Source of the DNA: a virus
Direction: 5' to 3' (one strand)
DNA length: 64,000 nucleotides
Virus record (IMG/VR): IMGVR_UViG_3300022890_000011
Coordinates: 32,001 to 96,000 of that record
Shown: in pieces, positions 9,648-63,153 of the stretch
Position numbering within the stretch: position 1 is the stretch's first letter
Layout of the letters: each line of letters starts with the position of its first letter
Translations under genes and position numbers: made by a program
Notes under the pieces: model-generated
Seen by the model: the letters and a program-made list of their open reading frames with translations, nothing else
The model's database searches: none
Told to the model about the DNA's origin: nothing

Positions 9648-10057
9648 AATATTCCTAGATTAATTCCGTTTTTCGCCCATTCTAAATTTTTTAGAAGTGG
9701 TGTTAAAATTGTTTTTTTAAATTTTTTGATTTTTATTAAACTTTTCCCATCATAACCCCCAGAAGAAAAATTCATAGATGTTGGATTATTGAAATCTTTT
9801 TCTAACTTAGATAAATATTTTAGATTTTCTGTTAAAAATTCATCCAATCTTTTATAATCAGTGTGACTTTTTTTTATATTAGGTATCCATTCTATAAATG
9901 GTGCAGAATCAGACTCATCATCACGAAATATATAATATAAATTTGGGAAATCACCGCCAATATCGCCAATAAAAAAACAAAAATGTTTATGATAATATGA
10001 TTCTACCATTGGTAGTTTGTTAAATTCAAAATTTTCGTATGTTTTTAAATATTTCAT
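9644..10057 (-). CDS. Dual-tagged hypothetical protein (MKYLKTYENFE... / ...INLGIL)
   Basis: Terminal motifs. Confidence 0.65.
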   Translation of the reverse strand: MKYLKTYENFEFNKLPMVESYYHKHFCFFIGDIGGDFPNLYYIFRDDESDSAPFIEWIPNIKKSHTDYKRLDEFLTENLKYLSKLEKDFNNPTSMNFSSGGYDGKSLIKIKKFKKTILTPLLKNLEWAKNGINLGIL

Positions 10058-13772: not shown

Positions 13773-14243
13773 ATGATTATAAATTTTAATAATTTTATAA
13801 ATGAAAAATTAGATATTTCTGATATTGAATTATATAATACTACTATGTATGATATTGAAACTGAAATTACAAATTTAGAATATGAAATTGAAGAATTAAA
13901 AACAAAAAAAGAAGAATTCAAGGATCTACATAAGAAATTATTTTTAGAAATTATAGATCTAACAGTTAAATATGGTGAAAAATTAGATTCAGATTGTTAT
14001 AATTTAAAAATTAAAGGTATAGGAGAGTTTGATAAAATAACAATATATTTAGAAAAAGAAACAAATATTGAGGATTCTTATATAGAATTAGAAACATTTA
14101 AAAATAATAAACCTGGACCTAGTGCATCAGGTAGTGTTTATGATTTTGAAGTAGATGGTCTTGAAATTTTATATAAATATTTTTGCAATTTACCAGAAGA
14201 CTTAACACCTTATTTAGAAGCAGGAAAAATGGGACTAATGTAA
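13773..14243 (+). CDS. Dual-tagged hypothetical protein (MIINFNNFINE... / ...EAGKMGLM)
   Basis: Terminal motifs. Confidence 0.65.
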   Translation: MIINFNNFINEKLDISDIELYNTTMYDIETEITNLEYEIEELKTKKEEFKDLHKKLFLEIIDLTVKYGEKLDSDCYNLKIKGIGEFDKITIYLEKETNIEDSYIELETFKNNKPGPSASGSVYDFEVDGLEILYKYFCNLPEDLTPYLEAGKMGLM

Positions 14244-14537: not shown

Positions 14538-17500
14538 TTAGTAATCTAGATTTTCATCAACATACAAGTAACCTTTTTCATCAAAGAAATAATATCCACC
14601 TCCTACATTAATATAAGGATAACTATCACCAGATGCGATAGCTGATATTCTTAAATTATTATTTATTAGATGTAGATTTCTTGCTAATTTTGTATTATAC
14701 ATTTCATTATTAGTCATTCCGATACCATCTTCATTATAGTAATTTGTTTCAATATAGATATAAGGATCTACATCTTTATTTATTACGAAACTATATGGTT
14801 CTAAATCATTTTTTTGTAATTTTATATATTGTTCTGGTGCTAGTTTTAAACTACCAATAGAGTCATTTTTATATTCCTCCATCATTTCTGGATACCATGT
14901 TCCTATTGGTTGTACTTCTGAACTAACCCAATCTTCTTCTTCAATAACTTCATATATTTCTCTTGTATCATTTAAACTGAATGTTTTAATTTTACAAGTC
15001 CATCCACTTGGGATAAAATTGTCATTGGTATAAAAATTCAATGTTGTTAAATAACTTTCACCAAAGTTTTGTGTTAATGTTTTGTAAAAATGCACTACAG
15101 ATGTTGTTCTGGTAACATCAAAAGCCATTGATTGATTACTAACATCATTATTAAGATATAAATTTGTATTTGTTGTAGCAACCCCCGTTATGTCAATTAT
15201 ATTTGTTGATAATGGTAATATATTTCTTTTTAACCATCTTTTTAATCCATTTAATTTATATAATGCTTCATCAAATGTATACATTTCAACATTATCTCCA
15301 TTTTCATCAGTTAATTTATAAGCAAGATTAAATAGATTCGTTTTTTTCATGACTTCCTTTTCTTTAGGAGTTCTAATATAGTCATAAGTGTTCCAACCCT
15401 CAACACTATTATCAAAAATATCAGGTATTAAGACTTTATGTAATTTTTCATACATTGGAGATGTAGGATCAGCAGTACGATAATATTCATATAATTCTAG
15501 ATCATTATATCCGAAATAATTAATTGCATTGATTAAAGCTTTATAAGAACCTACATAATTCCATATTTCTGGATATACGGCTAACATTTCTTTTCTTTTT
15601 CTATTTAAAAGAATGTAATCTATTCCTTGTTCTTTAACATCAGATTCTTTAAAAATATATTCTAATTCTTCGCCTATGTCAACACCAATATTATGTAATC
15701 CTATATCAAATCTAATATCTTCAACTTCTGTTTGACCATAAATTGGACATCTTAAAATAGTCTTAGGTTCAACTTTAATTTTAAATTTATAACCATTTGT
15801 ATTTCCACTAGAATTAAATATAGTGAATCCAGTTATTCCTGTTAATTGTATTTCAACTTTTCCTGCCGTTATTATTTTATACTCTTGAGGATTTTCAAAA
15901 ATAGTTTCACCGGTTGTTGACAAATCATCAAATCTAAGTGACACAAATTGATCTTTTTCAAAACCTAATTTAACAAAACTAAAATTTGGTTGATTAGGAT
16001 TTGTTATTCTTAATAAACCAGTTTCATCTAATGAAAATTGTATACTATTATTATTTTCATCATTATTTGTTGTTCCACTATAAATAATATTTTCAATTTT
16101 CTCTAATAGTAAAACATTATTAGTAACACCTTCATTTTCTCCCTTAAAACCAACAAATGTTTGTAATGGTATTGGAATATAATTAGCATTACTAGAATCA
16201 TATTGATCTAAAAGATATTTAACTTCTTCGAATACTGTTTGTTGTCTTGATGGGTCATTAACATAATTAATATCCATATTTGGATACCAGTTTAGATATA
16301 AATTATTTGGGTTATTTTTATCAAATAATGGTTTTGAACCTGTATACATTCTTGTTGTTATCGTATTTCCTGTTGTGTCTACAGGTGGATAATTTTCTAA
16401 TTGTTCTCCTGAAAAATCATATAAAAACATTGAACTATCATAATCTTCTTCCCATCTAAATCTATAATAAATATCTTTATAATAACTTTCTCTAGGTTTT
16501 CTTAAAAATTCTCTAGATTGTATTATAGTATGTTCTGAACTTGAAAATATATTGAAATCATTATTAAATGAATTATCAAACGAATATCGTGTGGTTGTAT
16601 AATGTCCTTGGTATGATAATTGCATTATAGTTTCTGATAAACCAATAATATTATATTCGTGATTATTAGTAAAGAATGTATCACCACTGATAGCAACAAT
16701 CATTCCTGTTGAAAATCTTTTATCAAAGAAAGTTGTACTACCTGTAGGTGGTAATGTTCTTATTTCACTTCCTGTCACAATTATTCCTTGTGATTGTATT
16801 TCTGATAATATTTCATAATTAGAAAATGTATTAACATTTATTTCAAGATTCCAAACAGATATATTTGGATATTGTCCTTGAATAGTTAATGTATCAGCAG
16901 AACTTGATAAATTAAATCCTTTAGTAGTAAATGCATTTTGATATTCATCAATAAAATCAGTTAATGTTTGTTCTGTATTTGCACTAAACGAAATATAACT
17001 TTCCATGTTATTTAAGTTAATCCTAAATCCATATTCTTGATTATTAGTTGATAAGTCAAATTGTATTTGAGTACTGTATACTTGCGCATTTTCAGCACTA
17101 TAAACAGGCAACCATTGGCTATATAATTTATCTTGCATTTTAATATAGTATCTAGGTAATGTTGAACCTGTAAAAGTTATACCAGAATCGTCATTGATAT
17201 ATAATTTTAAATTATCGAAATATAATTCATAACTATTATCATAACTATATAAAGATTCGACTGTTATTTCTGTGTCTCCTGATGTACCACCACTATAAAC
17301 ATCTATGCCATATCTATTATTTAATAATGTTTTATATTTAATATTAAATGCTTCGATAGTATTTGCGTAAGTATCTAATACTTCTTGTGTGAATTCTACT
17401 TTAGTATCAGCTAAATAACAAATTGCATCACCAGTAAAATCAGAAGATTCTACTGTTGTAGTATCACAAATTAATTTATCTATTTTAGGTCTTTTTAACC

Positions 17501-19022
17501 TAAACATATATTCTTGTGAGTTTTCTTCTATAATATAATTAGTTAATTCATATCTTGTTGTTCTTAAATTATAAGGAACTGGATTTTTATTTGTTGTTCC
17601 GTCTGATTTGGTATATGTTAATGATTCATTTTCAATTGTATATAAATCAATTGTTCTGTACATCCAGATAGCATCTAAACTTTTTTGTTCAATGTATGTA
17701 TTTCCTCTGTCTTGTGCTTTTGCAACAACACTATCTTTCCATACTTTACTGCCTTCAATTCTACTCTCCCAATATTCAATTCTTAGATCTTTCCATTTCT
17801 TAACTGTGTTAAATGTTATTGTTCTATTATTTAATTGACTGGTTATACCAGAAAAAATAAATTGATCTCCAGTACTAAAAAAATCTTCATTTGTTAATCC
17901 TGATAGTTCAATATAGTAATCATATGTTTGATATTTTCTTGGCATTGTAGATGGTGGTGTAGTTGGATTTGTTGAAACCATCGGAAAACTTCTATTGTTG
18001 TTAAAACTTTTTGATCTAGAAGCCGAATCATTATATTCTTTTATGAATGTAACAGCAGTTGTTAAAATATTATCATATTCAACAACTTCTATAACTTTAT
18101 AAATTGGATTTGAAGCAAATGTTAAATCACCAGTATAATCTTCAAACATTATTTCTTGTCCTTCTTGTAATTCTAATATTTCTTTATCTGTGTTTAATAA
18201 TGAATTTAACCCTAAATCAAATAATATTACAGCAGTTGTGCCAGTTCCATATGATGTATTATCAATTGTAACACCACCTTTATAAACAGTTGGTCTTTCA
18301 GTTCTAACATCGAATTCTAATTTTAATTCATTTCCTGTTTGTCCTGTTGGTAATGAACAATAGTTCTGGTAAAATATTTCTGTTAAACCTATATCTAAAA
18401 CATCATTTAATCCATCATTTGTATCTGATCCAACAATCGTCAATGTTTGACCACTATAAATATTAAATCCTAAAAAATCTGTAGCAGTATCACCAGAGTA
18501 ATCATTCCATGCAATATAATTGAGACTATCTAGAGCCCATGTATTTGCACTATATGAATATGTATATAAATCATTTTGAGTTTGTGTTAAAACTGAAACT
18601 GCACCAGGTCTTGTGTCAACTATTGTATAAAAATCTTTATTAAAATCTGATGTTAAGCTAGGTCCACTGAATTTCACTATTGTTCCGATAGGATACTTTC
18701 TATCGAAATTTTCTCCAAAAATCCATTTCGAATGAAAATCACTACTTTCATTAATCTTTTGTATATTTGTAATTGTGTTTCCGCTATATGTTTCACCGAA
18801 AAATCTTATACCGTCGTAGTTATATAGTTCTATATTTCGAAATTCAAATGTATCTTCATATGTTATTGGTCTTACAGTTTCGAAAGTGTAGAATGATAAT
18901 GTTTTGAATGTATCGTTACTATTTACTGGAAAAAATAATTTTCCATTATATCTATCTGCTTCTGCATCATAAATAAAATTGTACGGATATCCTTTAGAAT
19001 TAAAGAAAAGTAAATTTTTCAC
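14538..19022 (-). CDS. Large virion structural protein, baseplate-wedge-like
   Basis: 1494 aa, T/S/N/Y-rich beta character; C-terminal YVGSYKALINAINYFGY segment reminiscent of wedge proteins; TTAATATATA at 19045-19054 (-). Confidence 0.55.
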   Translation of the reverse strand: MKNLLFFNSKGYPYNFIYDAEADRYNGKLFFPVNSNDTFKTLSFYTFETVRPITYEDTFEFRNIELYNYDGIRFFGETYSGNTITNIQKINESSDFHSKWIFGENFDRKYPIGTIVKFSGPSLTSDFNKDFYTIVDTRPGAVSVLTQTQNDLYTYSYSANTWALDSLNYIAWNDYSGDTATDFLGFNIYSGQTLTIVGSDTNDGLNDVLDIGLTEIFYQNYCSLPTGQTGNELKLEFDVRTERPTVYKGGVTIDNTSYGTGTTAVILFDLGLNSLLNTDKEILELQEGQEIMFEDYTGDLTFASNPIYKVIEVVEYDNILTTAVTFIKEYNDSASRSKSFNNNRSFPMVSTNPTTPPSTMPRKYQTYDYYIELSGLTNEDFFSTGDQFIFSGITSQLNNRTITFNTVKKWKDLRIEYWESRIEGSKVWKDSVVAKAQDRGNTYIEQKSLDAIWMYRTIDLYTIENESLTYTKSDGTTNKNPVPYNLRTTRYELTNYIIEENSQEYMFRLKRPKIDKLICDTTTVESSDFTGDAICYLADTKVEFTQEVLDTYANTIEAFNIKYKTLLNNRYGIDVYSGGTSGDTEITVESLYSYDNSYELYFDNLKLYINDDSGITFTGSTLPRYYIKMQDKLYSQWLPVYSAENAQVYSTQIQFDLSTNNQEYGFRINLNNMESYISFSANTEQTLTDFIDEYQNAFTTKGFNLSSSADTLTIQGQYPNISVWNLEINVNTFSNYEILSEIQSQGIIVTGSEIRTLPPTGSTTFFDKRFSTGMIVAISGDTFFTNNHEYNIIGLSETIMQLSYQGHYTTTRYSFDNSFNNDFNIFSSSEHTIIQSREFLRKPRESYYKDIYYRFRWEEDYDSSMFLYDFSGEQLENYPPVDTTGNTITTRMYTGSKPLFDKNNPNNLYLNWYPNMDINYVNDPSRQQTVFEEVKYLLDQYDSSNANYIPIPLQTFVGFKGENEGVTNNVLLLEKIENIIYSGTTNNDENNNSIQFSLDETGLLRITNPNQPNFSFVKLGFEKDQFVSLRFDDLSTTGETIFENPQEYKIITAGKVEIQLTGITGFTIFNSSGNTNGYKFKIKVEPKTILRCPIYGQTEVEDIRFDIGLHNIGVDIGEELEYIFKESDVKEQGIDYILLNRKRKEMLAVYPEIWNYVGSYKALINAINYFGYNDLELYEYYRTADPTSPMYEKLHKVLIPDIFDNSVEGWNTYDYIRTPKEKEVMKKTNLFNLAYKLTDENGDNVEMYTFDEALYKLNGLKRWLKRNILPLSTNIIDITGVATTNTNLYLNNDVSNQSMAFDVTRTTSVVHFYKTLTQNFGESYLTTLNFYTNDNFIPSGWTCKIKTFSLNDTREIYEVIEEEDWVSSEVQPIGTWYPEMMEEYKNDSIGSLKLAPEQYIKLQKNDLEPYSFVINKDVDPYIYIETNYYNEDGIGMTNNEMYNTKLARNLHLINNNLRISAIASGDSYPYINVGGGYYFFDEKGYLYVDENLDY

Positions 19023-22555: not shown

Positions 22556-22774
22556 ATGGAAATTGAAGATATCCGAAAACAAAGACAATCAAAAGGAAAA
22601 TCATTTTGGTATTATCCTGCAATATTTTGGAAATGGCTTAAAAAGAATAAATGGAAGATTCTTATTACAGCCATTATCGCAATTCTATTAATTAGTCCAA
22701 GTTGGGCTGGTACTACAATAGGAACATGGATTACTGATTTTATTGGTAATTTAGTAAATTCAATTAGTATTTAA
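22556..22774 (+). CDS. Small membrane protein
   Basis: Basic N-terminus plus hydrophobic helix. Confidence 0.5.
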   Translation: MEIEDIRKQRQSKGKSFWYYPAIFWKWLKKNKWKILITAIIAILLISPSWAGTTIGTWITDFIGNLVNSISI

Positions 22775-23109
22775 TGACTTGGGAAGATGTAGAAAATGCT
22801 AATTCAATTTCGAAGAGAGAAAAGTTAGAAGAAAAGTATTATATAGAACAAGTTAAAATTCTGGATTGGTTAAAAACTGAAGGTGATCAAAAAATTAGAT
22901 TCTTAGACAGAATAGAATATAAAGTTGATGGTAAACCACATAGATTAGATGGACCAGCCGTAGAACCAATTGAAGGAAATCCTACCGGTACTTTACCATT
23001 AGAAGAATATTGGATTAATGGTGAAAAATTTAGTGATCATAAAGAATGGTTACCCGTAGCACAAAGATTAGATAGAAAATTAAAATTAGAAAGAGTTAAA
23101 GGTGAATAA
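22774..23109 (+). CDS. HRLDGPA-motif protein with RKxKL C-terminal tag
   Basis: PHRLDGPAVE...YWINGE; ends RLDRKLKLERVKGE. Confidence 0.6.
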   Translation: MTWEDVENANSISKREKLEEKYYIEQVKILDWLKTEGDQKIRFLDRIEYKVDGKPHRLDGPAVEPIEGNPTGTLPLEEYWINGEKFSDHKEWLPVAQRLDRKLKLERVKGE

Positions 23110-23566
23110 TATATTTGAAGAAGCAAAAAATAAAGATATTATAGAAAATTTACCAAAAGGTTATGATGTAGATTATAATTATATGATAAGATTATGGCCA
23201 AAATATATTAAATACTACATTATTGATAAAGAAAAAATAGAAGTTGATGATAAGGTGATATTATTATTTTCGAAAAATAAATATAGAAATAATGTAACTT
23301 ACGTTTATTGTGAAAATACAACTTCTATTTATGAATATTATCTAAAAGGTGGATTATTACATAATCTTGATGGATATGCTTATAGACATTATTATAAACC
23401 GAATAAAAGATTACAAATAATGTATTATTTGGACGGATATTATCATGAAGAAAAACCTGATGAAATTTTCAATTCAGTTACTCCTATATGGGTAGAAGAT
23501 AAAAGAGTAATAAGACATCAGAGAAAAAGTAAATTAGAAAAAATTAAGTTGAAACAGAACCCATAG
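23102..23566 (+). CDS. LHNLDG-motif protein with RKxKL C-terminal tag
   Basis: LLHNLDGYAY...YYLDG; ends RHQRKSKLEKIK. Confidence 0.6.
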   Translation: MNNIFEEAKNKDIIENLPKGYDVDYNYMIRLWPKYIKYYIIDKEKIEVDDKVILLFSKNKYRNNVTYVYCENTTSIYEYYLKGGLLHNLDGYAYRHYYKPNKRLQIMYYLDGYYHEEKPDEIFNSVTPIWVEDKRVIRHQRKSKLEKIKLKQNP

Positions 23567-29626: not shown

Positions 29627-30817
29627 ATGAAACATTTAAAAACATATGATGATTTAATAAATGAATCAATATTTGATTTTGGTTTTCTTAAAGGTGTTAA
29701 AGATTTTGTTTCAAATTTTTTTAGTGGAAAAGCAAATGCTAAAGAGATTACTATTAATTTAACAAATGCATTGAGAAATTATCAAAAAGAAGTATTACAC
29801 AATCCTTATAAACTTGATAGATTATCTATTAATAGTATGTTGAAAAAAATTAAAGATATAGTTGGTGAAGAATTATTAATTGATCTTAATTTAGATTCAT
29901 TTTTCAGGGGACTTTATAGTGTATCTGTTTTAAAAGGAGATAGACATGAAAATATTATAGATTATTTCAATTCTTATATTGATTTATTATCACAAAGAGT
30001 ACAAAAATTATATAAGAAAAAGAAAGATGTTGATTATGAAGAAGAAGAATTTGAAGAAGTAAAAAAATTGAAGAAAAAAGCCATTCAAAAAATGACTAAT
30101 AAAGAGTTTAGAAAGAAAAAAACTCCTCTTCAAATTGAATTATTAAAATTACAAAATTGGTTATATAGAAAAGATAAAAGATTAGCTGTTCTTTTTGAAG
30201 GTAGAGATGCTGCAGGAAAAGGTTCAGCAATCAAGACCATTATTGAATTTCTAGACCCAAAATTATTTAAAGTGGCTACGTTTGGTATACCAACAGAAGA
30301 AGAAAAATTAAATTGGTTTGAAAGATATACTAAGAAATTACCAAAACCTGGTAAAATATCATTTTTTGATAGAAGTTGGTATAATAGAGCAGTAAATGAC
30401 CCTGTTATGGGTTATTGTACAAAAGAACAATATAATGAATTTATAGAAGAAGTTATTCCATTTGAAGATCAATTAATTGATAATGGATTATATTTATTTA
30501 AATTTTGGTTCTCAGTGAGCCAAGAAACTCAAGAATTAAGGTTTCAAATTAGACAAGCAAATCCATTAAAGACCTGGAAATTTAGTGAAAATGATTTATT
30601 AACTATGAATAAATGGGATAAATTTACAGCATATAAAGAGAGAATGTTTTTACAAACTTCTACAGAAAAATCACCTTGGGTAATTGTTGATTCTAATGAT
30701 AAGAAATTGGCTCAAATTAACATAATGAAATATATTTTAGAACAGATACCATATAAAAATAAAGATGTTAAAAGAGTTGGTCATCCATTACCAGAAATCG
30801 TAATACCTTTGAAATGA
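29627..30817 (+). CDS. ppk2: Polyphosphate kinase 2 with N-terminal extension carrying a CTS-like tag
   Basis: FEGRDAAGKG Walker A and FDRSWYNR motif; likely start MKHLKTYDDLINE at 29627. Confidence 0.9.
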   Translation: MKHLKTYDDLINESIFDFGFLKGVKDFVSNFFSGKANAKEITINLTNALRNYQKEVLHNPYKLDRLSINSMLKKIKDIVGEELLIDLNLDSFFRGLYSVSVLKGDRHENIIDYFNSYIDLLSQRVQKLYKKKKDVDYEEEEFEEVKKLKKKAIQKMTNKEFRKKKTPLQIELLKLQNWLYRKDKRLAVLFEGRDAAGKGSAIKTIIEFLDPKLFKVATFGIPTEEEKLNWFERYTKKLPKPGKISFFDRSWYNRAVNDPVMGYCTKEQYNEFIEEVIPFEDQLIDNGLYLFKFWFSVSQETQELRFQIRQANPLKTWKFSENDLLTMNKWDKFTAYKERMFLQTSTEKSPWVIVDSNDKKLAQINIMKYILEQIPYKNKDVKRVGHPLPEIVIPLK

Positions 30818-31230
30818 AATATTTAAAAAAATTTGAAGATATTATTACTACTACTTATGATAATATTGATATACCTATTGATTATACAGATGATATATTA
30901 TTTGATTTAGATTTTGAAACATTTAAATCAGTTTTAAATCTTATAAATATTGGTAGGCCACTTAATGCTTTAAAAAGTATTAAACATAAATTAGATTATG
31001 GTTTAAAACAATGCAAAGATTTGATGGGGAGAATGTGTTCTCTATTAGGTTATGATAGATTTAATATTAAATCTAATGAAAATGATCAATTTAATTATCA
31101 AGATGAAATAATAGATAAATATCCAGAATTAATATCATTAATTAGTAATTCAGAAAGATTTAATTTATTACCAGAAATAAGAGAAATATATGATGATTTA
31201 ATTCAAGGAAGTGAGTTGGGATTATTGTAA
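30814..31230 (+). CDS. Dual-tagged hypothetical protein (MKYLKKFE... / ...GSELGLL)
   Basis: Terminal motifs. Confidence 0.65.
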   Translation: MKYLKKFEDIITTTYDNIDIPIDYTDDILFDLDFETFKSVLNLINIGRPLNALKSIKHKLDYGLKQCKDLMGRMCSLLGYDRFNIKSNENDQFNYQDEIIDKYPELISLISNSERFNLLPEIREIYDDLIQGSELGLL

Positions 31231-33098: not shown

Positions 33099-33448
33099 TG
33101 AGACACCTAAAAACATATTTTGAGTCTTACGATGAATCGAATGACGAATTTAACGAAGAAATAATTGATAATTTTGATGAAGTTAGTGAAGAAATTATTG
33201 ACATAATTAAAAATATCGAAAATAAAACCACTGACATTGAAAGCGCGATGGAAAAATTAGACTTTATGATAGAAGGTTCTGGAGTAGAAACTATTAATAA
33301 GGGGGAAGAAGAGGATGATTATTGGTTAAATATAAAATCAATTTATGTTAATATTGGAGATCCTGATATGAAAACAATCTTTTATAATGTAGAAGATAGT
33401 GAGTGGTATTGTAAAAGTTACAATGAGTATATTAAAAAAGAGGATTAA
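33098..33448 (+). CDS. Acidic CTS-tagged protein
   Basis: MRHLKTYFE. Confidence 0.6.
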   Translation: MRHLKTYFESYDESNDEFNEEIIDNFDEVSEEIIDIIKNIENKTTDIESAMEKLDFMIEGSGVETINKGEEEDDYWLNIKSIYVNIGDPDMKTIFYNVEDSEWYCKSYNEYIKKED

Positions 33449-33459
33449 TCCTCTTTTTT
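33434..33459. terminator. 26-bp perfect palindrome centred on shared TTAA stops of convergent genes (likely bidirectional terminator)
   Basis: aaaaaagaggattaatcctctttttt. Confidence 0.6.
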
Positions 33460-34476
33460 TATTCTATTATAATCAATTATAATATTTATTTTAAACAATA
33501 ATGGTTGCCTTTGTTTTTTGGTTAATAATAAACCTTTGTTCTTTATTCTTATGATTTCTCCATTTTTTGTTTCTTTTGGAATAGTAAATTTATATTTTTT
33601 ATTGTCTAAATGTTTATGTTCATACTTATATCCATTAATAGCATCTTCATAATGTACATCTAATTGATAAATTAAACCATTTTTTAAAGGTTGATATTTT
33701 TCATCTGGAATATAATTAATAAGTAAAACTAAATTACCCACTTTACCTGGATAGTATTTAGAATGATGTCCATAACCTGATAAATATTCTTTACTTGAAC
33801 CTGTTAATTTGTATATATTATCTAAATTAAATTTAACTTGTTTTATTTTTACTTTATCACCGTTACAAGTTTTACAAGTGTCTGTAAAAATTTTTCCTAT
33901 ACCTTGACATTGAGGGCATTGTACGATCATTCTAGTTCCTTTAAATTTTGGGTCTTGTCCAGTGCCATCACAAACTTCACATATTTCTGAATGACCATTT
34001 TTATCAAACCCTGTTCCATCACAATCTTCACAACTTATATATCTTTGATAATCTACTTCAGTTGTTTTATTATTATAAACATCAGCAAGAGTTACATCAA
34101 TTTGTTGTTGTATATCTAAATCTTCTCTAAATCCTTGTTGATCTCTAAAACCTCTATTACCACCAAAAAATGAATCAAAAATATCTTGTGGACTTCCACC
34201 AAATGGATTAAAACCTCCACTACCTGGAAAACCAAATCCTCCCGTTGGGTTATAATTTGCACCATGGGGACTCATCATATCATACTGTTCTCTATTTTTA
34301 TTAAGAATAGTATTAGCTTCGTTAGCTTCTTTGAATTTTTCTTCTAATTCTTTGTCACCTTTTGTTTTGTCTGGATGATATTTTACAGCAAGTTTTCTGT
34401 AAGCTTTTTTAATATCTTCTTCTGAAGCGTCTTTTGTAACATCTAATATTTTGTAATAATCTTTATTTGGATCCAT
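33445..34476 (-). CDS. dnaJ: Chaperone DnaJ
   Basis: J-domain with HPD, G/F-rich linker, four CxxCxGxG-type zinc motifs, C-terminal domain. Confidence 0.92.
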   Translation of the reverse strand: MDPNKDYYKILDVTKDASEEDIKKAYRKLAVKYHPDKTKGDKELEEKFKEANEANTILNKNREQYDMMSPHGANYNPTGGFGFPGSGGFNPFGGSPQDIFDSFFGGNRGFRDQQGFREDLDIQQQIDVTLADVYNNKTTEVDYQRYISCEDCDGTGFDKNGHSEICEVCDGTGQDPKFKGTRMIVQCPQCQGIGKIFTDTCKTCNGDKVKIKQVKFNLDNIYKLTGSSKEYLSGYGHHSKYYPGKVGNLVLLINYIPDEKYQPLKNGLIYQLDVHYEDAINGYKYEHKHLDNKKYKFTIPKETKNGEIIRIKNKGLLLTKKQRQPLLFKINIIIDYNRIKKED

Positions 34477-52981: not shown

Positions 52982-53065
52982 TTAGTTTTTTATATCAACG
53001 AGAGCTTTATTATCAAAATCAATTTCGTCATAGATTTTTTCGTTATATTTTTTTAAGTATTTCAT
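52982..53065 (-). pseudogene. 27-aa CTS stub MKYLKKYNEKIYDEIDFDNKALVDIKN
   Basis: ATGA overlap with the upstream LGLL* gene; early stop. Confidence 0.55.
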
Positions 53066-53502
53066 AATAGTCCTAATTCACCTCCTTGTAGTATATATTC
53101 ATATTTATTTTCTTCTACCCAATTATAAAAATTATATTGAGTAGGATGATGTCCATTTGGATCTGAAAAATATATATCTTCTGTTTCAGCTGTTAATGTA
53201 TAATATAATGGTTCACTTTCTACACTTCCTTCATTTATTACAATAAACCAAATAAAATTTGGTTCTTTTTCAGCTTTAATTTTAATGTAATTTAAAAATT
53301 GTTGTTTTGTTCCTGATGTCATGTTTCTATTTCCAAAAACTATGATATCATCATTATAATGTTCACACATTAATTTAATTGCATTAACAATGTCTTTTCC
53401 TTTTATAAATTTATATCCCCATGATTTTTGATGATTTGTTGGTTTATCATTTTGTATAGGTTTCGATTTAAAAAAGCCTTCGTATGTTTTTAGATTATTC
53501 AT
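53062..53502 (-). CDS. Dual-tagged protein (MNNLKTYE... / ...GGELGLL)
   Basis: Terminal motifs. Confidence 0.65.
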   Translation of the reverse strand: MNNLKTYEGFFKSKPIQNDKPTNHQKSWGYKFIKGKDIVNAIKLMCEHYNDDIIVFGNRNMTSGTKQQFLNYIKIKAEKEPNFIWFIVINEGSVESEPLYYTLTAETEDIYFSDPNGHHPTQYNFYNWVEENKYEYILQGGELGLL

Positions 53503-53536: not shown

Positions 53537-53962
53537 ATGAAATCATATGAAAAATATATAGAATTTAATAAAAAGATTGAATCTTTAAAAAGTGAAATGT
53601 GTATTGAACTTTATAATGAGTTATTAAAAATGAAAAAGTTTGGTGTTAAACCAGAGAGTAATAGTCAAGGTTTAGATCTTATAATACCTTTTAAAGTTAA
53701 AATTTATGATAATGATTATAATGGATTTGGTATTTATTATCACAGGGTACAAGGTAGAGAAAATATTAGTATATATGTTGGTATTGTAGATGATATTGAT
53801 AATTTTGGTTGGGAGGGGTTAATTATAACAGTTTCTGTTAAAGGTTATATTCAAGGAGATTTGATTGAAAATGAACAAAATAAACAATTTAAAATAATAT
53901 TTAAGTTTTTAATGGAAGATGCTCTGCCATATTTAGAGTCAAGAAATTTAGGATTAATGTAA
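53537..53962 (+). CDS. Dual-tagged protein (MKSYEKYIE... / ...SRNLGLM)
   Basis: Terminal motifs. Confidence 0.65.
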   Translation: MKSYEKYIEFNKKIESLKSEMCIELYNELLKMKKFGVKPESNSQGLDLIIPFKVKIYDNDYNGFGIYYHRVQGRENISIYVGIVDDIDNFGWEGLIITVSVKGYIQGDLIENEQNKQFKIIFKFLMEDALPYLESRNLGLM

Positions 53963-54502
53963 ATGAAGTATTTAAAAACATATTCAGAAAATCAATTAAT
54001 TAAAGACCATTTAAGTGATAATGGTAAAACATTAGATTTATCTAATTTAGATTTAACTGAATTACCTGAATTACCTGAAGGATTAGAAAGATTATATTGT
54101 GGTAATAACCAATTACCTGAATTACCTGAATTACTTAAAGAATTAAAAGTATTATATTGTTATAATAACCAATTAACTAAATTACCTGAATTACCTGAAG
54201 GATTAGAAAGATTATATTGTTATTATAACCAATTAACTAAATTACCTGAATTACCTAAAGGATTAAAAAGATTATATTGTTATTATAACCAATTAACTAA
54301 ATTACCTGAATTACCTAAAGGGTTAGAAGTATTATCTTGTTATTATAACCAATTAACTAAATTACCTGAATTACCTAAAGGGTTAAAAATATTAGATTGT
54401 GATTATAACCAATTAACATATAAAGATTTAGATGGTTATTGGAAATGGTTTTGGAAAGAAAATCCAGACCTTCATAATGCAAATAAAATGGGATTATATT
54501 AA
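53963..54502 (+). CDS. Dual-tagged leucine-rich-repeat protein (short 20-aa bacterial LRR)
   Basis: Six LPELPxGLxxLYCxxNQLTK repeats encoded by ~60-bp tandem DNA repeats; MKYLKTYSE ... NKMGLY. Confidence 0.85.
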   Translation: MKYLKTYSENQLIKDHLSDNGKTLDLSNLDLTELPELPEGLERLYCGNNQLPELPELLKELKVLYCYNNQLTKLPELPEGLERLYCYYNQLTKLPELPKGLKRLYCYYNQLTKLPELPKGLEVLSCYYNQLTKLPELPKGLKILDCDYNQLTYKDLDGYWKWFWKENPDLHNANKMGLY

Positions 54503-54901
54503 ATGAAGTATTTAAAAACATATGAAGAGTTGTTATATGTAAATTATAAGTATGTTATAGTTTGTAAAAATGAAAAAGAATTTGTTGATGTTCAAAAATA
54601 TATTAAAAAGAATGTACCACAGATAAAATTCAATTTTCAAAAATCTTATTATGATGTTAAAAATGATTTTATTAGTAGTTCAGATTTTAGTAGTAACAGA
54701 ACAATAGATGAAGTTTATCCTAATTTGAAAGATGAAAACTCACCTATTTTTCTTTATATTTTACCAGATTTAGAAATTATTACAGGTGATATTGATAAGT
54801 GGATTGAATATTATGATAAAAAAGGAATACCAGTTATAAAAGGCAATGATATTGAACAATTATCAGTATTTATAGAATCAAAAAAATTAGGACTAATGTA
54901 A
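54503..54901 (+). CDS. Dual-tagged protein (MKYLKTYEE... / ...SKKLGLM)
   Basis: Terminal motifs. Confidence 0.65.
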   Translation: MKYLKTYEELLYVNYKYVIVCKNEKEFVDVQKYIKKNVPQIKFNFQKSYYDVKNDFISSSDFSSNRTIDEVYPNLKDENSPIFLYILPDLEIITGDIDKWIEYYDKKGIPVIKGNDIEQLSVFIESKKLGLM

Positions 54902-55379: not shown

Positions 55380-55556
55380 ATGCCAAGAAATAAAATGAAA
55401 CCGGAAGAAAAAAAAATTAGTTTTGGTATTACACTTGACCCTTTAATTGTTAAATTGTTAAATGAACAATCAGAACTGGAAGGAAAATCTAAATCAAAAT
55501 TAATAGAAGATGTCGTTAAAGAACATTTTAAAAATATAAATTTAGAAGATGACTAA
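55380..55556 (+). CDS. Ribbon-helix-helix protein (58 aa, not in ORF track)
   Basis: MPRNKMKPEEKKISFGITLDPLIVKLL...SKSKLIEDVVKEHF. Confidence 0.6.
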   Translation: MPRNKMKPEEKKISFGITLDPLIVKLLNEQSELEGKSKSKLIEDVVKEHFKNINLEDD

Positions 55557-58500
55557 AATAGTACATTTAGCAGATATACATATCGTAAATAATCCACATG
55601 AACATTTTAAATATAGAGAACAATTTAAAAAATTATATGATGAACTTGATAAAATTAAACCAACTAAGATAGTTTTAGTTGGTGATACATTAGATAATTT
55701 TATTGAAATATCTCTAGAAGCAGAATTATTAACTTCAGAATTTTTGAACAAATTATCTACATATTGTGAAGTTATTGTTGTATTAGGCAATCATGAAATT
55801 AGGAAAAAAGATTTATCTAGAAAATCTTCAATAGGTTCTATTATTAAGATGATAAATAATAAAAATATTACATTTTTTGAAAAATCTGGTTTTTATGATG
55901 ATTCAACTGAAGATATAGTATGGGTAAATTATTCACATCTTGAAAAAACAATAATCCCTTGGAAAGATATTAAACACAACAAAACAAATAAAACATATAT
56001 TGGGTTATATCATGATCCTATTTATGGTTGTAAATTACCAAGTGGTTTAAGTATGAATAAAAAAAAGTTGCCTAAATTTGAAGATTTTTCCAATAATGAT
56101 TTAAATTTGTTTGGTGATATACATTTGCGTCAATTTTTTGATGATAAATGTGCTTTTTGTGGATCTTTCATGCAATTGAATTTTGGTGAAAAAGTAGAAA
56201 ATCATGGGTTTTTGTTATGGGAAATTGACAATGGTGAAATATCAGTTAAAGAATATAATTTGGAAAATGAATACAATTTTATAAATTTGTGTGTTGGAAG
56301 TGGCGTGAATTATGATAATTTAAATATATTAACAAAACATGCGAAAAAACATTCAAAATTCAAGGTACATTGGAAAGAATTAAGTTCTCAAATTAATCTT
56401 GAAAATGAGGTTAAAATAAGAAATTATATAGGTTCTAAATATAATATAGATCCAAATAAAATTAAGATTGATAAAGAATTTTTATATACATCAATAATAG
56501 AATCACAAATGCTAAGTGAAAGTGTTGACATAACAGATAAAACTATTCAACATGAAATTTTTAATGAATATCTCGAAAATAAAGGATATAGTGAAGAACA
56601 AATTAAACAAATATTAGAAATAGATGATATTGTTGATGAAAGGTTAGAATTAAAACCTATTTTAAATAACATTAATTATTCACTTGATGAATTATGGATA
56701 GATAATTTTAAGTCATATGGTTTAAAAAATAATTTACCATGGAAAGACAGTAATGGAGTTATTCAAATAACAGGAGAAAATCAACAAGGAAAAACAACAA
56801 TAATTGATGCAATAACATATTTATTTTTTGGAACTACAATGGCCACAAATATTTTAGGTGGTGGTAAAAAAGAAAAATTTGGAGATCAAAGATATATTAA
56901 TAATAAAAACAAACATGATTATTGCAAAGTTGATGGTAAAATAACAATTGATGGTGAAACATTAACATTAAAAAGAAGAACTGATAGACAATGGACAAAA
57001 AATAATACAGTTAAGGCTTGTCCTACAATTTTCACTATTTTAAATGATCAAGGATTGCCTTTAAATGAAGAAACAAGAGCTAAAACCCAGAGAAAACTTG
57101 ATTCTATATTGGGTACATTTGATGATTTTGTTAGAATGATTTTAACAAATGCTGATAATTTAAATGCTTTGTTATCTTTGAACAGGTCTATTTTTATAGA
57201 TTCTTTAATTAAAGATGCAGGTTATGATGTATTTGATAAGAAATTAAAAGAGTTTAAATCTTATAAAAAAGAAGAGGAAGAGTCTGAAGAAACTATTAAT
57301 ATAAATATTATTGATGTTGAATCAGATATTAAAGAATCTGAAGAAGAAATATCAGATTATGAAGATTTAAATACAACTAATTTGGATAAAATAGAAATTA
57401 TAGATATAAAACTTAAAACTTCATTTAATGAAAGAGACGAAGAAATTAAGAAATTACATAAGATTGATGCTGAAATTGTAGAGTTAGATATTGATGAGTT
57501 AAATCAAAGACTTGAACAATATAAAGAAGCAATTATAACTAATCAAAATAAACAAACTAAAAATTCTGAATATATGAAGAATCTAAAACAAGAGTTTGAT
57601 GAAGATAAGTTAAAATCTTTGTATAAAGAAGTTCAAAATATAGATAAATCCGTGATGGATATTCAGTTATCTATCAAAGATACAGATAATAAAATATCAA
57701 AAGAAAATCAAGTTATTGATAAAGTAGATGATAAAATTGATAATATGAAAGATAAAGAGATTGATAGAAAGAGATCTTTGATTGATGATATTAATGATAA
57801 AATAAATAATTTAGATTCACTATATCAAAAAGCGGTTGACGATAAGGTTAAAGATGTTGAAAAAGAAGTTAATAGTATTAATAGTGAAATTAAATTAACT
57901 AAGTCTGAATTAAAACATATTAGAGAAACAGGTATTGGTAAGAAGAAAGAGATTTCTAAATTAGAAAAAGAAATTGAAGATTTAGAAGATAGTAAAGTTT
58001 GTCCTACATGTAATAGAGAGTGGGATGATGAAGATAAACAGAAACATATTAGAAATTGGGTAGATAAATATAGAGATAATATAAAAATTTTAGATCAAGA
58101 AATTCAGGGTTTATTTGATAAAGTTAAACCAGAACAAAGTAAATTAATGACATTAAAAAGTTTGATGTTAGAGAAAGAGGAAAAAGTTTTTGATTTAAAG
58201 AATGATATTATAAGTGGATTCAGTGATTTAGAGATATTAAAGGAAGATCATTTAAAGAAGAAAGAGGAATTAGTGGATAATATAACTTCTATTGAGGTTA
58301 TAATTAATGAGATTAAGGATGGTGATTATAAGAATGTCAAAATTCTAGAAGAAAATATACTTAAGGGTTTAACAGTAAAAGAAAATTCTTTAAAACAAAT
58401 TAGAATTTTTCAATTAGAAAATAAAGAAAAAGTACAGCTAATTAAGGATAAAAAATCTGAGATTGAAACTGTCGAAATGGATATAAATCTCTTAGAGAAA

Positions 58501-59295
58501 GAGCAAGAACAAGTTAAGAAATGGCAAGTTCTTTTTAATGATAATGAAAAACTTAAATTAGAGATTGATAAATACAGACTTACTATTGAGAAATTTAATG
58601 AGAAGTTCAAAAGATATAATGAGCATCTTAATTATATTGAAGACAATAAGAAGATTGAGTTATTGATTTCTGATATTGAATTTTCTATATCTGATAATGA
58701 AGATCGTAAAAAATTATTAACAGATAAGATTTCTAATAATAGTATTGAAATTAATATTTATAAAAAAGAAATAGAGAAAAATCTTAAAAAAATTGAAATA
58801 TTTAAAGAACAAGAAAGGAGAAAATCTTTATGGAAAGAATATGAAACACTTGTTCACAGAGACGGATTACCAAGTTACTTACTCAAAAAGTCAATACATT
58901 TAATAAATCATAAATTGAGTGAAATGTTAGGTGGTGTTGATTTTGATGTTTATTTTAACGAAGATTTAAATCTTAGAATGTTTATGAAATCTAGTCCAGA
59001 TGTAGAGCAAAATGCAATTGAAAGTTCAGGTAAGGAGCGAGTTTTTATCGCTGTTGCGTTAAAATCAGCATTAAGACACATAAATAATAGAAGTAAAATT
59101 AATATGTTGTTATTGGATGAGATTATGGGAAAATTATTGAATAAATCTGTTGATGAATTTAGAAATTTACTATTGAATCTAAAAAATGATATCGACAAGA
59201 TAGTTATCATAGAACATATACATCCAATACAACCTGATTATATCATTGATGTAATTAAAAATGAAGATGGAATTAGTTCATTTAATTTAAGTTAA
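55549..59295 (+). CDS. Fused SbcD/Mre11 nuclease - SbcC/Rad50 ATPase (T4 gp47-gp46 equivalent)
   Basis: HLADIH, VGD, GNHE and GDIH phosphoesterase motifs; Walker A GENQQGKTT; coiled coil with CPTC zinc hook; SSGKE signature; LLLDE Walker B; IEH. Confidence 0.9.
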   Translation: MTKIVHLADIHIVNNPHEHFKYREQFKKLYDELDKIKPTKIVLVGDTLDNFIEISLEAELLTSEFLNKLSTYCEVIVVLGNHEIRKKDLSRKSSIGSIIKMINNKNITFFEKSGFYDDSTEDIVWVNYSHLEKTIIPWKDIKHNKTNKTYIGLYHDPIYGCKLPSGLSMNKKKLPKFEDFSNNDLNLFGDIHLRQFFDDKCAFCGSFMQLNFGEKVENHGFLLWEIDNGEISVKEYNLENEYNFINLCVGSGVNYDNLNILTKHAKKHSKFKVHWKELSSQINLENEVKIRNYIGSKYNIDPNKIKIDKEFLYTSIIESQMLSESVDITDKTIQHEIFNEYLENKGYSEEQIKQILEIDDIVDERLELKPILNNINYSLDELWIDNFKSYGLKNNLPWKDSNGVIQITGENQQGKTTIIDAITYLFFGTTMATNILGGGKKEKFGDQRYINNKNKHDYCKVDGKITIDGETLTLKRRTDRQWTKNNTVKACPTIFTILNDQGLPLNEETRAKTQRKLDSILGTFDDFVRMILTNADNLNALLSLNRSIFIDSLIKDAGYDVFDKKLKEFKSYKKEEEESEETININIIDVESDIKESEEEISDYEDLNTTNLDKIEIIDIKLKTSFNERDEEIKKLHKIDAEIVELDIDELNQRLEQYKEAIITNQNKQTKNSEYMKNLKQEFDEDKLKSLYKEVQNIDKSVMDIQLSIKDTDNKISKENQVIDKVDDKIDNMKDKEIDRKRSLIDDINDKINNLDSLYQKAVDDKVKDVEKEVNSINSEIKLTKSELKHIRETGIGKKKEISKLEKEIEDLEDSKVCPTCNREWDDEDKQKHIRNWVDKYRDNIKILDQEIQGLFDKVKPEQSKLMTLKSLMLEKEEKVFDLKNDIISGFSDLEILKEDHLKKKEELVDNITSIEVIINEIKDGDYKNVKILEENILKGLTVKENSLKQIRIFQLENKEKVQLIKDKKSEIETVEMDINLLEKEQEQVKKWQVLFNDNEKLKLEIDKYRLTIEKFNEKFKRYNEHLNYIEDNKKIELLISDIEFSISDNEDRKKLLTDKISNNSIEINIYKKEIEKNLKKIEIFKEQERRKSLWKEYETLVHRDGLPSYLLKKSIHLINHKLSEMLGGVDFDVYFNEDLNLRMFMKSSPDVEQNAIESSGKERVFIAVALKSALRHINNRSKINMLLLDEIMGKLLNKSVDEFRNLLLNLKNDIDKIVIIEHIHPIQPDYIIDVIKNEDGISSFNLS

Positions 59296-59516: not shown

Positions 59517-59699
59517 ATGAGGAAGAAGATCCCAGATGAGAAAAAGAAGAAAAAAACTGCTGTTTCTATTGACAAGGAATTATCAATTATTTTAATAGAT
59601 TTTTTAAAAGATAAGAATTTAAAAAGATCTAAATATATAGAAAATCTTATCAGAAATGATATGGAAAAACGAGGCAAGGGAATAGAAAGGGAATTCTAA
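59517..59699 (+). CDS. Ribbon-helix-helix protein
   Basis: KTAVSIDKEL...KRSKYIENLIRNDM. Confidence 0.6.
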   Translation: MRKKIPDEKKKKKTAVSIDKELSIILIDFLKDKNLKRSKYIENLIRNDMEKRGKGIEREF

Positions 59700-59721: not shown

Positions 59722-62700
59722 ATGGAAGTATATAACGTAAAATATTATAAGAGTGGAATTTATGAAGGTATATACACTTTAAAAATAGAAGAAGAAGTTG
59801 TGTCTGGTCTTTTAATAGGCAATCATCAAGTAACACCAAGTGAAATAAAACATAAATTTACATTAATTAAAGATGATAATTTAATAGATGAATATTTAGA
59901 TCAATGGGAATCAAACTACATTTTTAAAAATGACCGAAGTAATAGAGATATTAGATTTGAGAATCAATTTTTAGAAGTTGAATTGACAAGACCTATTTTA
60001 AAATCTATTTGTGAAGATGTTGATAACGGTGTTTATGAATATGAATATCAACAAGATTATTACTCAATGAATTTTGATGTTGATAAATATCAAAAGTATC
60101 TTATTAGAAAAGAAAGAAAAAATAAATTAGATAGAATACGTGAATCCGATAAATAATTTTATTATGAGTCTTAATATTAAAGAAAAATATAATGATATTT
60201 ATAAGTTGATTTTAGAATATGATTTGAATATTTTATTAAAACCAAATAATTCAAATATTGAATTTGTTATTGAATATGATGGTTATCAAATAGAGATAAA
60301 ACAAGGTATAACTGAAAAAGAATTTCAAAAGAAAATTATAAAGTTTCTTAGAAAGATTAAAATGAAGAGGTTGAAAAGTGAATAGAGAGTTTTTAAATGA
60401 TAATAAACAATTAATCAGAGAATATTTGTGTGATTTATGTACTTGTGATGTTGATGTTATTGAATTTTTTTTATATCCTGAAGATGGTAGGTGGAGAGTT
60501 ATGTATATGAATATTGAACTTGATTATTTTAATTATGATAGGATAAAATTAAATGAAAATGATGTTATTAAATATATTAGGAAACGTAAAATAGAGAGGG
60601 TAAAAGACAATGATAACAAATGAACAATATCTTAGTACAAAGTATGGTAAGAAATTAATCGAAATTATTGAAGATGATGATGACTGTTGTGTTTATGTGT
60701 TAGATATAAATGGTATTATCATTGTTCAGAAGTTGGTTTTGTCAGATGAGGATAAAAAAGAGTATTTAAGAATTAGTAGAAAACTAAAATTAGAGAGGGT
60801 AAAAGATGTTTGATTGGAATATAGTTGATGATATGTTAGATCGGTTAGATTTACACATGAGTATTATAAATTTTAATGGTAATGATAATATAGTTTTTCA
60901 GTATAAGGTTGAAAAAATAAGTACTAAAAATATACGGAAATTTAATTCTGATCATGATTTATTAAAATATCTTCAAAGATTAGAACGAAAACTTAAATTA
61001 GATAGAGTTAATGATAAATAGAGAATATTATTTTGATGAATTATGGCCTGAAAAACCTTTGCCATCACCACAAGGAAAAATAATATATCTTGATTATGTA
61101 TATCCTAATTTTAATATAATAGAAATAGAGAAAAACATAATAGAAAGGTTAAATGGAAAACTGGATTGAAGTAAGTGATAGATTAGATACAAAGACGAAA
61201 TATATTTAGTATTGGAGTATGTAGGTAATTCTAGAATAGATGATTTGCCAATTTATAGAATTGGATATAGTAATATTTTGTGTAATACAAATGAATTAAA
61301 TAAATATATTAGATATAATTATGTCAAATCCATTTCTGAGGCTCATACTAACATTACTAGTATTGAGCAAAATGTGATACGTAGATTCACTTTAAATAAT
61401 ATGATTATTAAGATTTATAAATATAATAAAGATGTACTAAATGAAAATTAAGGAAATAACAAAAGAATTGATGACTGAAGCATTTCAAGAAATTCTTAAA
61501 AAATATGATTTAAATGATATTGTAAATGGCGATTTTAAAGAAATGGGATTTGTAATGGATTATCCAGTTAAACTTAATGAAGAAGTTGAAGAGGATGATT
61601 TATATACTATTATAGAGGAAGAAATTATTGAAAAGTTCAAAGATAGATCTGGAATGAAAGAAAAGATTAAAGAAATTAAACGTAAAGAAAGGAAAGATAA
61701 AATTGAGAGACTTAGAAACGAGTAATTTATTAGATATTTATAATTATTGTAAGAGTTATTTGGATGACACATTTTCAGTTTTACAATTAATTAAATCATA
61801 TTGTGTTATTCAAAATAAAGAGTTATTTTTAACAATGAATATTGATGATAATGCATTTGAAAATTTAAGTGAAAAAGTACGATATATTTGTGAGAAGGTT
61901 ATTTCTAAAATTTATCCATCTTTTGATTTAAATCTTATAACTATAAATATAACAAAATCTGATTTTGATTCGATAAATGTTGATTTTGAGTTTAATAAAC
62001 CGGTTCTTAAAGATGCATTATGTAAAGAATTTACATCTAAGGAGTTTATTAGATTAGATAGAAAACGTAAACTTAAAAGAGTTAAATATGGAAGATAATT
62101 TAATATTTGTAGAAGGATATGTTATTAAATATTTACATGATAATATTAATATATTAAGTAATGAGTTAAAAGTACAATTAAATTATTTAGATTCTCAGAA
62201 TTTGAAATATTTTTTTGAGATTATAATTAGTGGTGGTGCTTATTCTTTGCAAGTTAATGAAATGGATTGTAACTTAGAATTTATACCAGATAAAGAATTT
62301 TTAAGATATGTTAGAAAAGAAAAACTAAAAAGAATTAAAGATGCTAGATAAAGATATTATATTATTAATGATTCAATATACTGATAAACAAATTGATGAA
62401 AAATTTAATGAATGTGAAATTGATTTACCAACTGAATCTTTAGAATATAATTATGAAGTTGATTTAGTTAAATCTAAAATAGAGAGATTAAATAGATTAC
62501 AAGAGTCAATTGTAGAAGCTAAAGAAGTATTAAATTATAGATTAACTGAAAATAAATTGACAAATGAATCTATAATTAATTGTTTAGTAGAATGTGAAAG
62601 AATAGACGGTTCTGTTTATTGTAATTATCATTCATTTGATTTTGATGAAAAGAGGTATAATAGAATTATGAGAAAATTAAAATTGAAAAGAGTTAGAGGA

Positions 62701-63153
62701 ATATGAATCAGAAAATAGTTAATAAATTAAATAAAGCTGCTCATAAATTACATCAAAGGTCAATGTACGGTGCAGCTAATCATATTATAGTTAGCGAAGA
62801 ATATATGGAAGTTGTTCAATTGATGTTTGATATTCAAACAATAGAACAAAATATAATAGAAAGATTAAATGATAAGTGGAACAGTGATTAAAAAGTATAA
62901 AGAATTAGGTATTAGGTCTATTATGATTAATGGTAATGATACAATGTTTGTTTATATTGATGATTGGTATTTATTTAAAGATTGGTGTGATTTTCCATTC
63001 ATGGTTATTTCTACTGAAAAAAATTGGAATATGAATTCAATAACCAACAATCCTTGGAGTATTCAAATAGAAGATCCTGAAACTAAATTAAAACTTTTTG
63101 ATAGAAAACTCAGGAAGTTAAAAATAAAAAGAATTAAAAATGAAGAAATTTAA
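59722..63153 (+). CDS. Array of small overlapping ORFs, ten ending in an RKxK[LIM]xR[IVL] tag (59722, 60140, 60378, 60610, 60806, 61441, 61703, 62088, 62341, 62869)
   Basis: Translationally coupled ORFs with unrelated bodies and a shared basic C-terminus. Confidence 0.7.
61011..61169 (+). CDS. 52-aa ORF with major-capsid-like peptide (not in ORF track)
   Basis: MINREYYFDELWPEKPLPSPQGKIIYLDYVYPNFNIIEIEKNIIERLNGKLD*. Confidence 0.5.
   Translation: MINREYYFDELWPEKPLPSPQGKIIYLDYVYPNFNIIEIEKNIIERLNGKLD
62703..62891 (+). CDS. 62-aa ORF with major-capsid-like peptide
   Basis: KLNKAAHKLHQRSMYGAANHIIVS; C-terminal IEQNIIERLN shared with the 61011 ORF. Confidence 0.5.
   Translation: MNQKIVNKLNKAAHKLHQRSMYGAANHIIVSEEYMEVVQLMFDIQTIEQNIIERLNDKWNSD

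Follow-up and report, generated by a model that had tools for sequence, protein, structure and literature searches.

A shared basic C-terminal tail on unrelated small proteins of a giant phage: a candidate docking handle

A recurrent C-terminal motif in an array of small genes

We analyzed a window of 64,000 nucleotides from an uncultured giant phage, bases 32001-96000 of the single virus record IMGVR_UViG_3300022890_000011 (166,601 bp, 25.5% G+C, estimated to be ~58% complete), in which a series of small genes end in a common basic peptide that we call the RK tail. A six-frame regular-expression scan for R-K-x-K-[LIM]-x-[RK]-[IVL] finds exactly 12 matches, and no strict match anywhere else in the window. 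All 12 copies are on the plus strand, use all three frames and sit 3-6 residues ahead of the stop codon in open reading frames (ORFs) of 67-154 amino acids (aa). Ten of them fall within an array at 59722-63153 and the other two lie at 23074-23097 and 23522-23545; the scan recovers every one of the 12 tails listed in the original prediction, a reading of the bare sequence that had described an array of ten plus two copies near 23 kb. The genes, in window coordinates, are the following.

22774..23109, plus strand: MORN-repeat protein, 111 aa; RK tail at 23074-23097, 3 residues short of the stop
23102..23566, plus strand: MORN-like protein, 154 aa (GTG start; 127 aa from the ATG at 23183); RK tail at 23522-23545
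59722..60156, plus strand: acidic protein, 144 aa, the first of the array; RK tail at 60115-60138
60140..60385, plus strand: 81-aa protein, GTG start; RK tail at 60350-60373
60378..60623, plus strand: 81-aa protein, GTG start; RK tail at 60579-60602
60610..60813, plus strand: acidic protein, 67 aa; RK tail at 60778-60801
60806..61021, plus strand: 71-aa protein; RK tail at 60986-61009
61441..61725, plus strand: acidic protein, 94 aa; RK tail at 61690-61713, with no ATG or GTG start after the motif
61703..62098, plus strand: 131-aa protein (TTG start; 87 aa from the ATG at 61835); RK tail at 62060-62083
62088..62351, plus strand: acidic protein, 87 aa; RK tail at 62313-62336
62341..62706, plus strand: acidic protein, 121 aa; RK tail at 62671-62694
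62869..63153, plus strand: 94-aa protein, carrying the last array tail of the window; RK tail at 63112-63135

The gene behind 23102..23566 is convergent, and hence no start codon follows that tail. Called ORFs of the whole record contain 21 strict matches, and 20 of these lie within 8 residues of the stop; the single internal copy is inside a P-loop protein. When the residues of every protein were shuffled (300 rounds), a mean of 0.12 matches was obtained, with 0.007 at the C-terminus compared to the 20 observed. The shared tail is confirmed as a real feature of this genome.

With their tails removed, the bodies of these proteins have little in common. The sole similarity detected by an all-against-all BLASTP comparison is that of the MORN repeats among three proteins, and no body has a match in Pfam or PHROGs. 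Among the 20 tail proteins of the whole record, 18 bodies are acidic (isoelectric point 4.1-6.8) and two are basic, so the earlier description of the bodies as acidic and dissimilar holds apart from these two and the three MORN proteins. Just past the window, at record positions 96880-97260, a perfect RK tail closes a short ORF that overlaps a terminated MORN-repeat ORF in a different frame. Either the gene is frameshifted here or the sequencing is at fault.

Distribution of the tail and the probable host

Outside of this record, pattern scans and a profile search of records locate the RK tail in a megaphage of 25% GC (~49% complete), on two overlapping 345-kb contigs and on a third contig. 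It is also present in a few short fragments. DNA-pattern scans of IMG/VR and a metagenome collection returned mostly unrelated repeats, with true tails confined to one megaphage lineage and three fragments. RK tails are absent from four Al-Shayeb-type phages of 484-735 kb that share a fused Mre11-Rad50-like gene or ClpC with our record. A search of 1.84 billion clustered proteins with the tail profile, which is too short for a database of this size, gave 7 matches at E <= 0.001 whose lengths equal those of the record's own tail proteins; by length alone, we take them to be self-hits.

The record and the megaphage are distant relatives. Of 248 ORFs in the record, 28 have a homolog in one megaphage contig and 20 in the overlapping sister contig (30 in either). 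A 388-aa transposase is nonetheless 100% identical between the two phages (L006:17429-18592 and megaphage contig G002:259161-260327), which suggests recent exchange of a mobile element within a common host pool. Using the identical transposase to search for the host yielded only short contigs binned to archaea and other groups, probably by mis-binning. The phage ClpC, which lacks the Clp_N domain, is 73-77% identical to ClpC of Bacteroidota, and this similarity together with the lack of Shine-Dalgarno signals (see below) points to a Bacteroidota host. The -7 promoter motif of Bacteroidota is not enriched upstream of the genes, and the T4 capsid and sheath families were not found in this record, which is only ~58% complete. 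The tail is confined to a small clade of 25%-GC giant phages, which probably infect Bacteroidota.

Anatomy of the tail

We aligned 35 distinct tails from this record, the megaphage contigs and four fragments. About 17 residues are conserved, with the consensus K(-7)-x-hydrophobic-hydrophobic-R(-3)-x-x-R-K-x-K-L-[E/D/K]-R-[V/I]-[K/R]-[N/G/D] followed by 1-3 arbitrary residues; numbering starts at the central Arg, and one to six residues follow the V/I at +7 in 34 of the 35 tails. No tail departs from Arg 0, Lys +1 and Lys +3, and a relaxed search gives none that does. Given that a single base change can swap Arg and Lys, this strict identity argues for a stereospecific partner. Other positions are looser: residue +4 is Leu in 28 tails, Ile in 6 and Met in 1; residue +7 is Val in 18, Ile in 14 and Leu in 3; and residue +5 is acidic in 63%.

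To judge from the alignment, the conserved positions -7, -3, 0, +1, +3, +4, +7 and +8 would occupy a/d/e/g-like places of a heptad, and we read them as a putative helix-helix packing face. The positions that vary freely (+2, -1 and -2) would be at b, c and f places. In one case a structural model is available. A 161-aa tail protein, the single one with a deep alignment, is modeled by AlphaFold2 (45 sequences) with a mean predicted local distance difference test score (pLDDT) of 96.8, and its residues 136-160, including the tail, form one continuous helix. Fold searches with this model reveal no clear relative (Foldseek best E = 0.42; VIA best Z = 2.8), and a model of a 121-aa tail protein made from its single sequence is unusable (pLDDT 41.5).

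The helix is strongly cationic and weakly amphipathic. Mean net charge is +6 over 18 residues, and the mean hydrophobic moment is 0.23, compared to 0.33-0.61 for the membrane helices of MinD and FtsA in the same calculation. The amphipathic docking helix of the original prediction thus needs correcting: the predicted helix is mainly cationic and its amphipathicity weak. Basic core positions led us to drop the idea that tails mediate homo-oligomerization.

Selection acts on the peptide

Synonymous variation at Arg and Leu codons had been taken as a sign of protein-level selection, with an initiation signal for the overlapping next gene named as the competing explanation. This variation is confirmed: Arg is encoded in the tails by AGA, AGG, CGA and CGT, and Leu by TTA, CTT, CTA, CTC and TTG. 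At the conserved Arg, Lys, Leu and Val positions, codons are used as in the genome at large, and identical residues of different tails share a codon no more than expected by chance (65.6% of pairs versus 67.5%). The tail DNA is on average 59.5% identical over 48 nucleotides (nt), and information content is highest at codon position 2, followed by positions 1 and 3. A DNA weight matrix finds no additional copy of the motif out of frame, between genes or on the opposite strand; wherever it occurs, the motif is read in the frame of the upstream protein. All of this agrees with selection on the protein.

If the tail were instead a by-product of gene packing, an A-rich initiation or coupling signal for the overlapping gene would leave the peptide incidental. 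In line with this, 12 of 20 tails are followed by the ATG of the next gene at a distance of 1-8 nt and at near-fixed offsets (+1, +4 and +7 nt, mostly +4). Tail genes with a neighbor overlap it by 8-11 nt in 8 of 13 cases, versus 9 of 123 other genes, and the Glu at residue +5 is encoded by GAG in 5 of 8 cases compared to 10% genome-wide. However, Shine-Dalgarno signals are absent from the genome: upstream of starts A is enriched and G depleted, and a Shine-Dalgarno-like core is present in 19 of 248 genes. At least four tails of the record (one of them before the convergent gene) and 3 of 10 in the megaphage have no start at that place. Moreover, +4 nt is simply the first position that permits an out-of-frame ATG past the constrained codons, and the Asn or Asp at residue +9 that supplies its A-T is also frequent where no gene follows. 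The absence of a Shine-Dalgarno signal, the genome-like codons, the restriction of the motif to one frame, the tails without a start and this account of the ATG offset support selection on the peptide and not on an initiation signal. What the overlapping start does shape is the 2-6 residues past the motif, which are its by-product; the motif itself is not.

Two further ideas can be set aside. The Val codon is too variable for an integron-type core site in the tail DNA, and an arrest peptide acting at the stop codon does not fit a distance to the stop that varies between 0 and 6 residues.

The tail is a module appended to unrelated bodies

Comparison with tail-less relatives supports the view that the RK tail is an appended module. 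For instance, the body of the 161-aa protein (record 104757-105242; L003:10757-11239) belongs to a family of 5,504 proteins, mostly of 130-150 aa, that end before the tail, and only its closest relative (59% identical) retains it. This relative lies on a syntenic fragment where the adjoining gene also keeps an RK tail, and in two ortholog pairs of 59-60% identity every motif residue is conserved while the x positions and the linker have changed. The family is uncharacterized and is marked by an invariant M-G-T-R-S start and by Y-C-H-W-D-G-Y and R-D-R-G-E motifs. In a second example, one LPX-type leucine-rich-repeat body of the megaphage carries an RK tail, while all of its paralogs have an N-terminal leader and a Gly-Leu-Leu end instead. 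Together with the dissimilar bodies, these cases bear out the claim that one tail is common to unrelated proteins.

The alternative is that the tail genes are remnants of one diverged paralog family whose C-terminal helix is structural and no tag. The genes do stand in tandem arrays and are of similar size, and detectable similarity can be lost in fast-evolving phage families. Against this, there are at least four types of body: MORN repeats, leucine-rich repeats, the widespread 130-aa domain that is normally tail-less, and a protein of the record that begins with a serine-rich leader.

The Gly-Leu-Leu end is itself a second, larger tag class, [E/N]-x-x-[K/R]-[L/M]-G-L-[L/M/I/Y]-COOH, present in 32 ORFs of the record and in 93 of a 348-kb megaphage contig; about half of these ORFs also begin with a leader of the M-K-Y-L-K-T-Y type. 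We take this end to resemble beta-clamp-binding, ssrA-like or encapsulin cargo peptides. The leucine-rich-repeat family is multi-copy, ~70% identical between the two phages and equipped with the N-terminal leader and the Gly-Leu-Leu-type end, and its LPX-type repeats resemble target-recognition domains of some secreted bacterial effectors.

Gly-Leu-Leu-type end tag, examples: window 8938-9390, 9644-10057, 13773-14243, 30814-31230, 53062-53502, 53537-54901
LPX-type leucine-rich-repeat copies: megaphage contig G002:11743-12345 and paralogs; record 17058-17597, 85963-86502, 160520-161059

It had been proposed that RK-tail proteins never carry the leader, regarded as a capsid tag, and that they exclude the leader/Gly-Leu-Leu class altogether. 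The first statement is literally true, with the M-K-Y-L-K-T-Y-type leader on 0 of 20 RK-tail proteins, but statistically meaningless (Fisher P = 0.23). The exclusion of Gly-Leu-Leu is trivial because both tags need the C-terminus, and, as noted above, the serine-rich leader does occur on one tail protein.

A docking handle and its alternatives

From a motif that is conserved as protein, modular and restricted in distribution, we infer the following mechanism. The tail would be a portable C-terminal alpha-helix appended to unrelated bodies in one small clade of giant phages. Several bodies have binder-type folds (MORN, leucine-rich repeats). In this common handle, the variable body would recognize a target, and the constant helix would dock the protein at a negatively charged macromolecular site that all tails share. 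As this site we favor the surface of a host or phage protein, with the helix packing into a groove, and the tail proteins would then form a library of adaptors or effectors addressed to a single hub. Three observations fit a handle read by one defined site: the residue-specific conservation on one face, the binder-type bodies and the exchange with another end tag. We give a docking handle with a protein partner, recognized through a specific acidic surface, a probability of roughly 45%. Knowing the reader of the tail would make two dozen orphan genes per genome interpretable in one step and would provide a compact, transferable targeting peptide for Bacteroidota-type cells.

Several points weigh against this proposal. 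Our analysis identified no partner, and the proteins that the record shares with the megaphage include no obvious hub; by Pfam, they are metabolic and DNA enzymes. The heptad assignment rests on just two hydrophobic positions. Start codons are tightly placed behind most tails, and the tail may have an added role in translational coupling. Lastly, the sole match in a solved structure is a lipid-anchoring peptide, which favors the membrane over a protein.

That match leads to the first alternative, in which the tail is a membrane address: a polybasic helix that binds anionic phospholipids and parks its proteins at the inner face of the cytoplasmic membrane, much like the cationic segments that anchor monotopic enzymes. 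The matching segment is the anchor Ser65-Leu87 of alMGS, the monoglucosyldiacylglycerol synthase of Acholeplasma laidlawii (1z2t, E = 0.071). Of 14 aligned positions, 10 agree with the tail, among them K(-7), the aromatic residue, R(-3) and R-K-x-K-L. alMGS binds anionic lipids through positively charged segments (PMC7650269). The high net charge of the tail would suit such a role. A further point in its favor is that three tail proteins contain MORN-type repeats, as judged by sequence similarity, and a fourth may do so if the MORN ORF beyond the window is joined to its tail ORF. The MORN repeat is often membrane-associated in eukaryotes. However, the match is marginal and lies within lysine-rich, low-GC sequence, the hydrophobic moment falls short of those of known membrane helices, only two to three hydrophobic residues are conserved, and residue +5 is acidic in most tails. 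In addition, electrostatic binding to lipids needs no strict choice of Arg or Lys at three positions. On balance, we think a membrane address unlikely.

A second alternative, which strikes us as more doubtful, is a handle for nucleic acid. Here the basic helix would bind a defined RNA or DNA element, in the manner of an arginine-rich motif, and tether the bodies to the genome, a transcript or the ribosome. The strong positive charge beside mostly acidic bodies is consistent with this idea, and residue-specific conservation suits a structured nucleic-acid site as well as it suits a protein. Known RNA-binding peptides of the arginine-rich kind are dominated by arginine; by contrast, the two invariant lysines of the tail are never arginine, and a hydrophobic pocket is suggested by the conserved Leu together with the beta-branched residue. 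No recurrent RNA or DNA sequence that could serve as the site came to light, although no search was aimed at one.

Returning to the protein-docking handle, a more specific version would have the RK helix dock binder bodies on an AAA+ protease or other host hub, the library serving as adaptors that deliver host proteins to destruction or sequestration. In the same reading, the clade would run several orthogonal address labels (the M-K-Y-L-K-T-Y leader, the serine-rich leader, Gly-Leu-Leu-COOH and the RK helix). Both parts of this reading are a long shot; if the adaptor library were real, it would be a bacterial-virus counterpart of the hijacking of degradation machinery by other viruses.

The record encodes its own proteostasis kit. 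Its ClpC retains an IGF loop, its ClpP is a true one, its AAA-M41 protease (HEAGH) is soluble and devoid of membrane helices, and a DnaJ completes the set.

ClpC, ClpP, AAA-M41 fusion and DnaJ: record 113199-115205, 128107-128766, 108229-110508; window 33445-34476 (minus strand)

This kit is what speaks for the third alternative, in which the tail is a degron or tether that marks its proteins, or whatever they hold, for an AAA+ protease, whether the phage ClpC-ClpP, the soluble AAA-M41 or the host ClpXP. ClpC is among the few proteins common to the record and the tail-bearing megaphage. For ClpX, both basic C-terminal degrons (PMC12723719) and C-terminal tethering peptides (PMC9963277) are established. 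However, the motif is a 17-residue helix with 2-6 residues behind it and offers no unstructured extreme C-terminus, four huge phages with closer or similar ClpC homologs (52-64% identical) carry no RK tails, and none of these phages encodes the ClpX zinc-binding domain. Complex prediction for the phage ClpC (40-row alignment) and the tail (20-row alignment) gave a score of 0.00, which weighs neither for nor against binding. We consider this explanation improbable.

Descent from a single diverged paralog family is very improbable in view of the range of bodies, and an incidental product of gene packing is barely credible given the evidence for selection on the peptide.

Neighboring genes

At the head of the RK array, just after a 221-bp gap, window 59517-59699 encodes a 60-aa protein that looks by eye like a ribbon-helix-helix protein. 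This candidate has a paralog at record 121284-121466 and could be a regulator of the array. Two mini-proteins encoded within the array, at window 61011-61169 (52 aa) and 62703-62891 (62 aa), share the end I-E-[K/Q]-N-I-I-E-R-L-N; a similar end closes a 70-aa protein of a megaphage contig. Upstream, the 1,248-aa product of window 55549-59295 joins an Mre11/SbcD-type phosphoesterase to a Rad50/SbcC-type coiled-coil ATPase and is 44% identical to a gene of a 735-kb uncultured phage.

Comparison with known systems

We found no description of such a tail in the literature. The RK tail appears to lack a counterpart in Pfam, PHROGs or the 1.84 billion clustered proteins, and in PDB the marginal 1z2t match stands alone. 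Four known systems invite comparison. The first is the ClpX-binding tail of SspB (PMC9963277), which likewise joins a variable recognition domain to a short, constant C-terminal tether for a hub, with basic and aliphatic residues alternating near the end. The SspB segment is much shorter and sits behind a disordered linker, whereas the RK tail is, in the one confident model, predicted to be a long helix continuous with its body. Furthermore, the SspB tail binds the zinc-binding N-domain of ClpX, and a phage-encoded ClpX N-domain was not found.

The C-motif-2 degron of MuA, the transposase of phage Mu (PMC12723719), is alike in that, near the C-terminus of a phage protein, Arg and Lys are clustered ahead of an aliphatic residue. 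The MuA signal is unstructured and at the very end, whereas the conserved part of the RK tail spans 17 residues, is modeled as helical and has residues following it. The anchor helix of alMGS (PDB 1z2t; PMC7650269) shares the K-x-aromatic-hydrophobic-R-K-x-R-K-L-K-L pattern and the high positive charge. That anchor lies inside its protein, behind a strongly hydrophobic half, whereas the RK tail is C-terminal, of low hydrophobic moment and often acidic at +5.

In T-even phages, the capsid-targeting sequence of the internal proteins is N-terminal and cleaved, and the clamp-binding peptides of T4 gp43, gp33 and gp55 are acidic/hydrophobic extreme C-termini. An N-terminal leader of the T4 type, cut after Glu by the prohead protease, does not describe the RK tail, which is C-terminal and, as described above, never accompanied by the M-K-Y-L-K-T-Y leader. 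The T4 capsid-targeting and clamp-binding peptides have no sequence resemblance to the RK helix; the likeness is that one short peptide stands on unrelated phage proteins and is read by a single phage partner. Few phage systems are known in which a short common peptide directs many proteins to one reader; these capsid-targeting leaders and clamp-binding tails are examples. The RK tail, which sits on binder-type domains, occurs alongside at least three further classes of tag in the same genomes.

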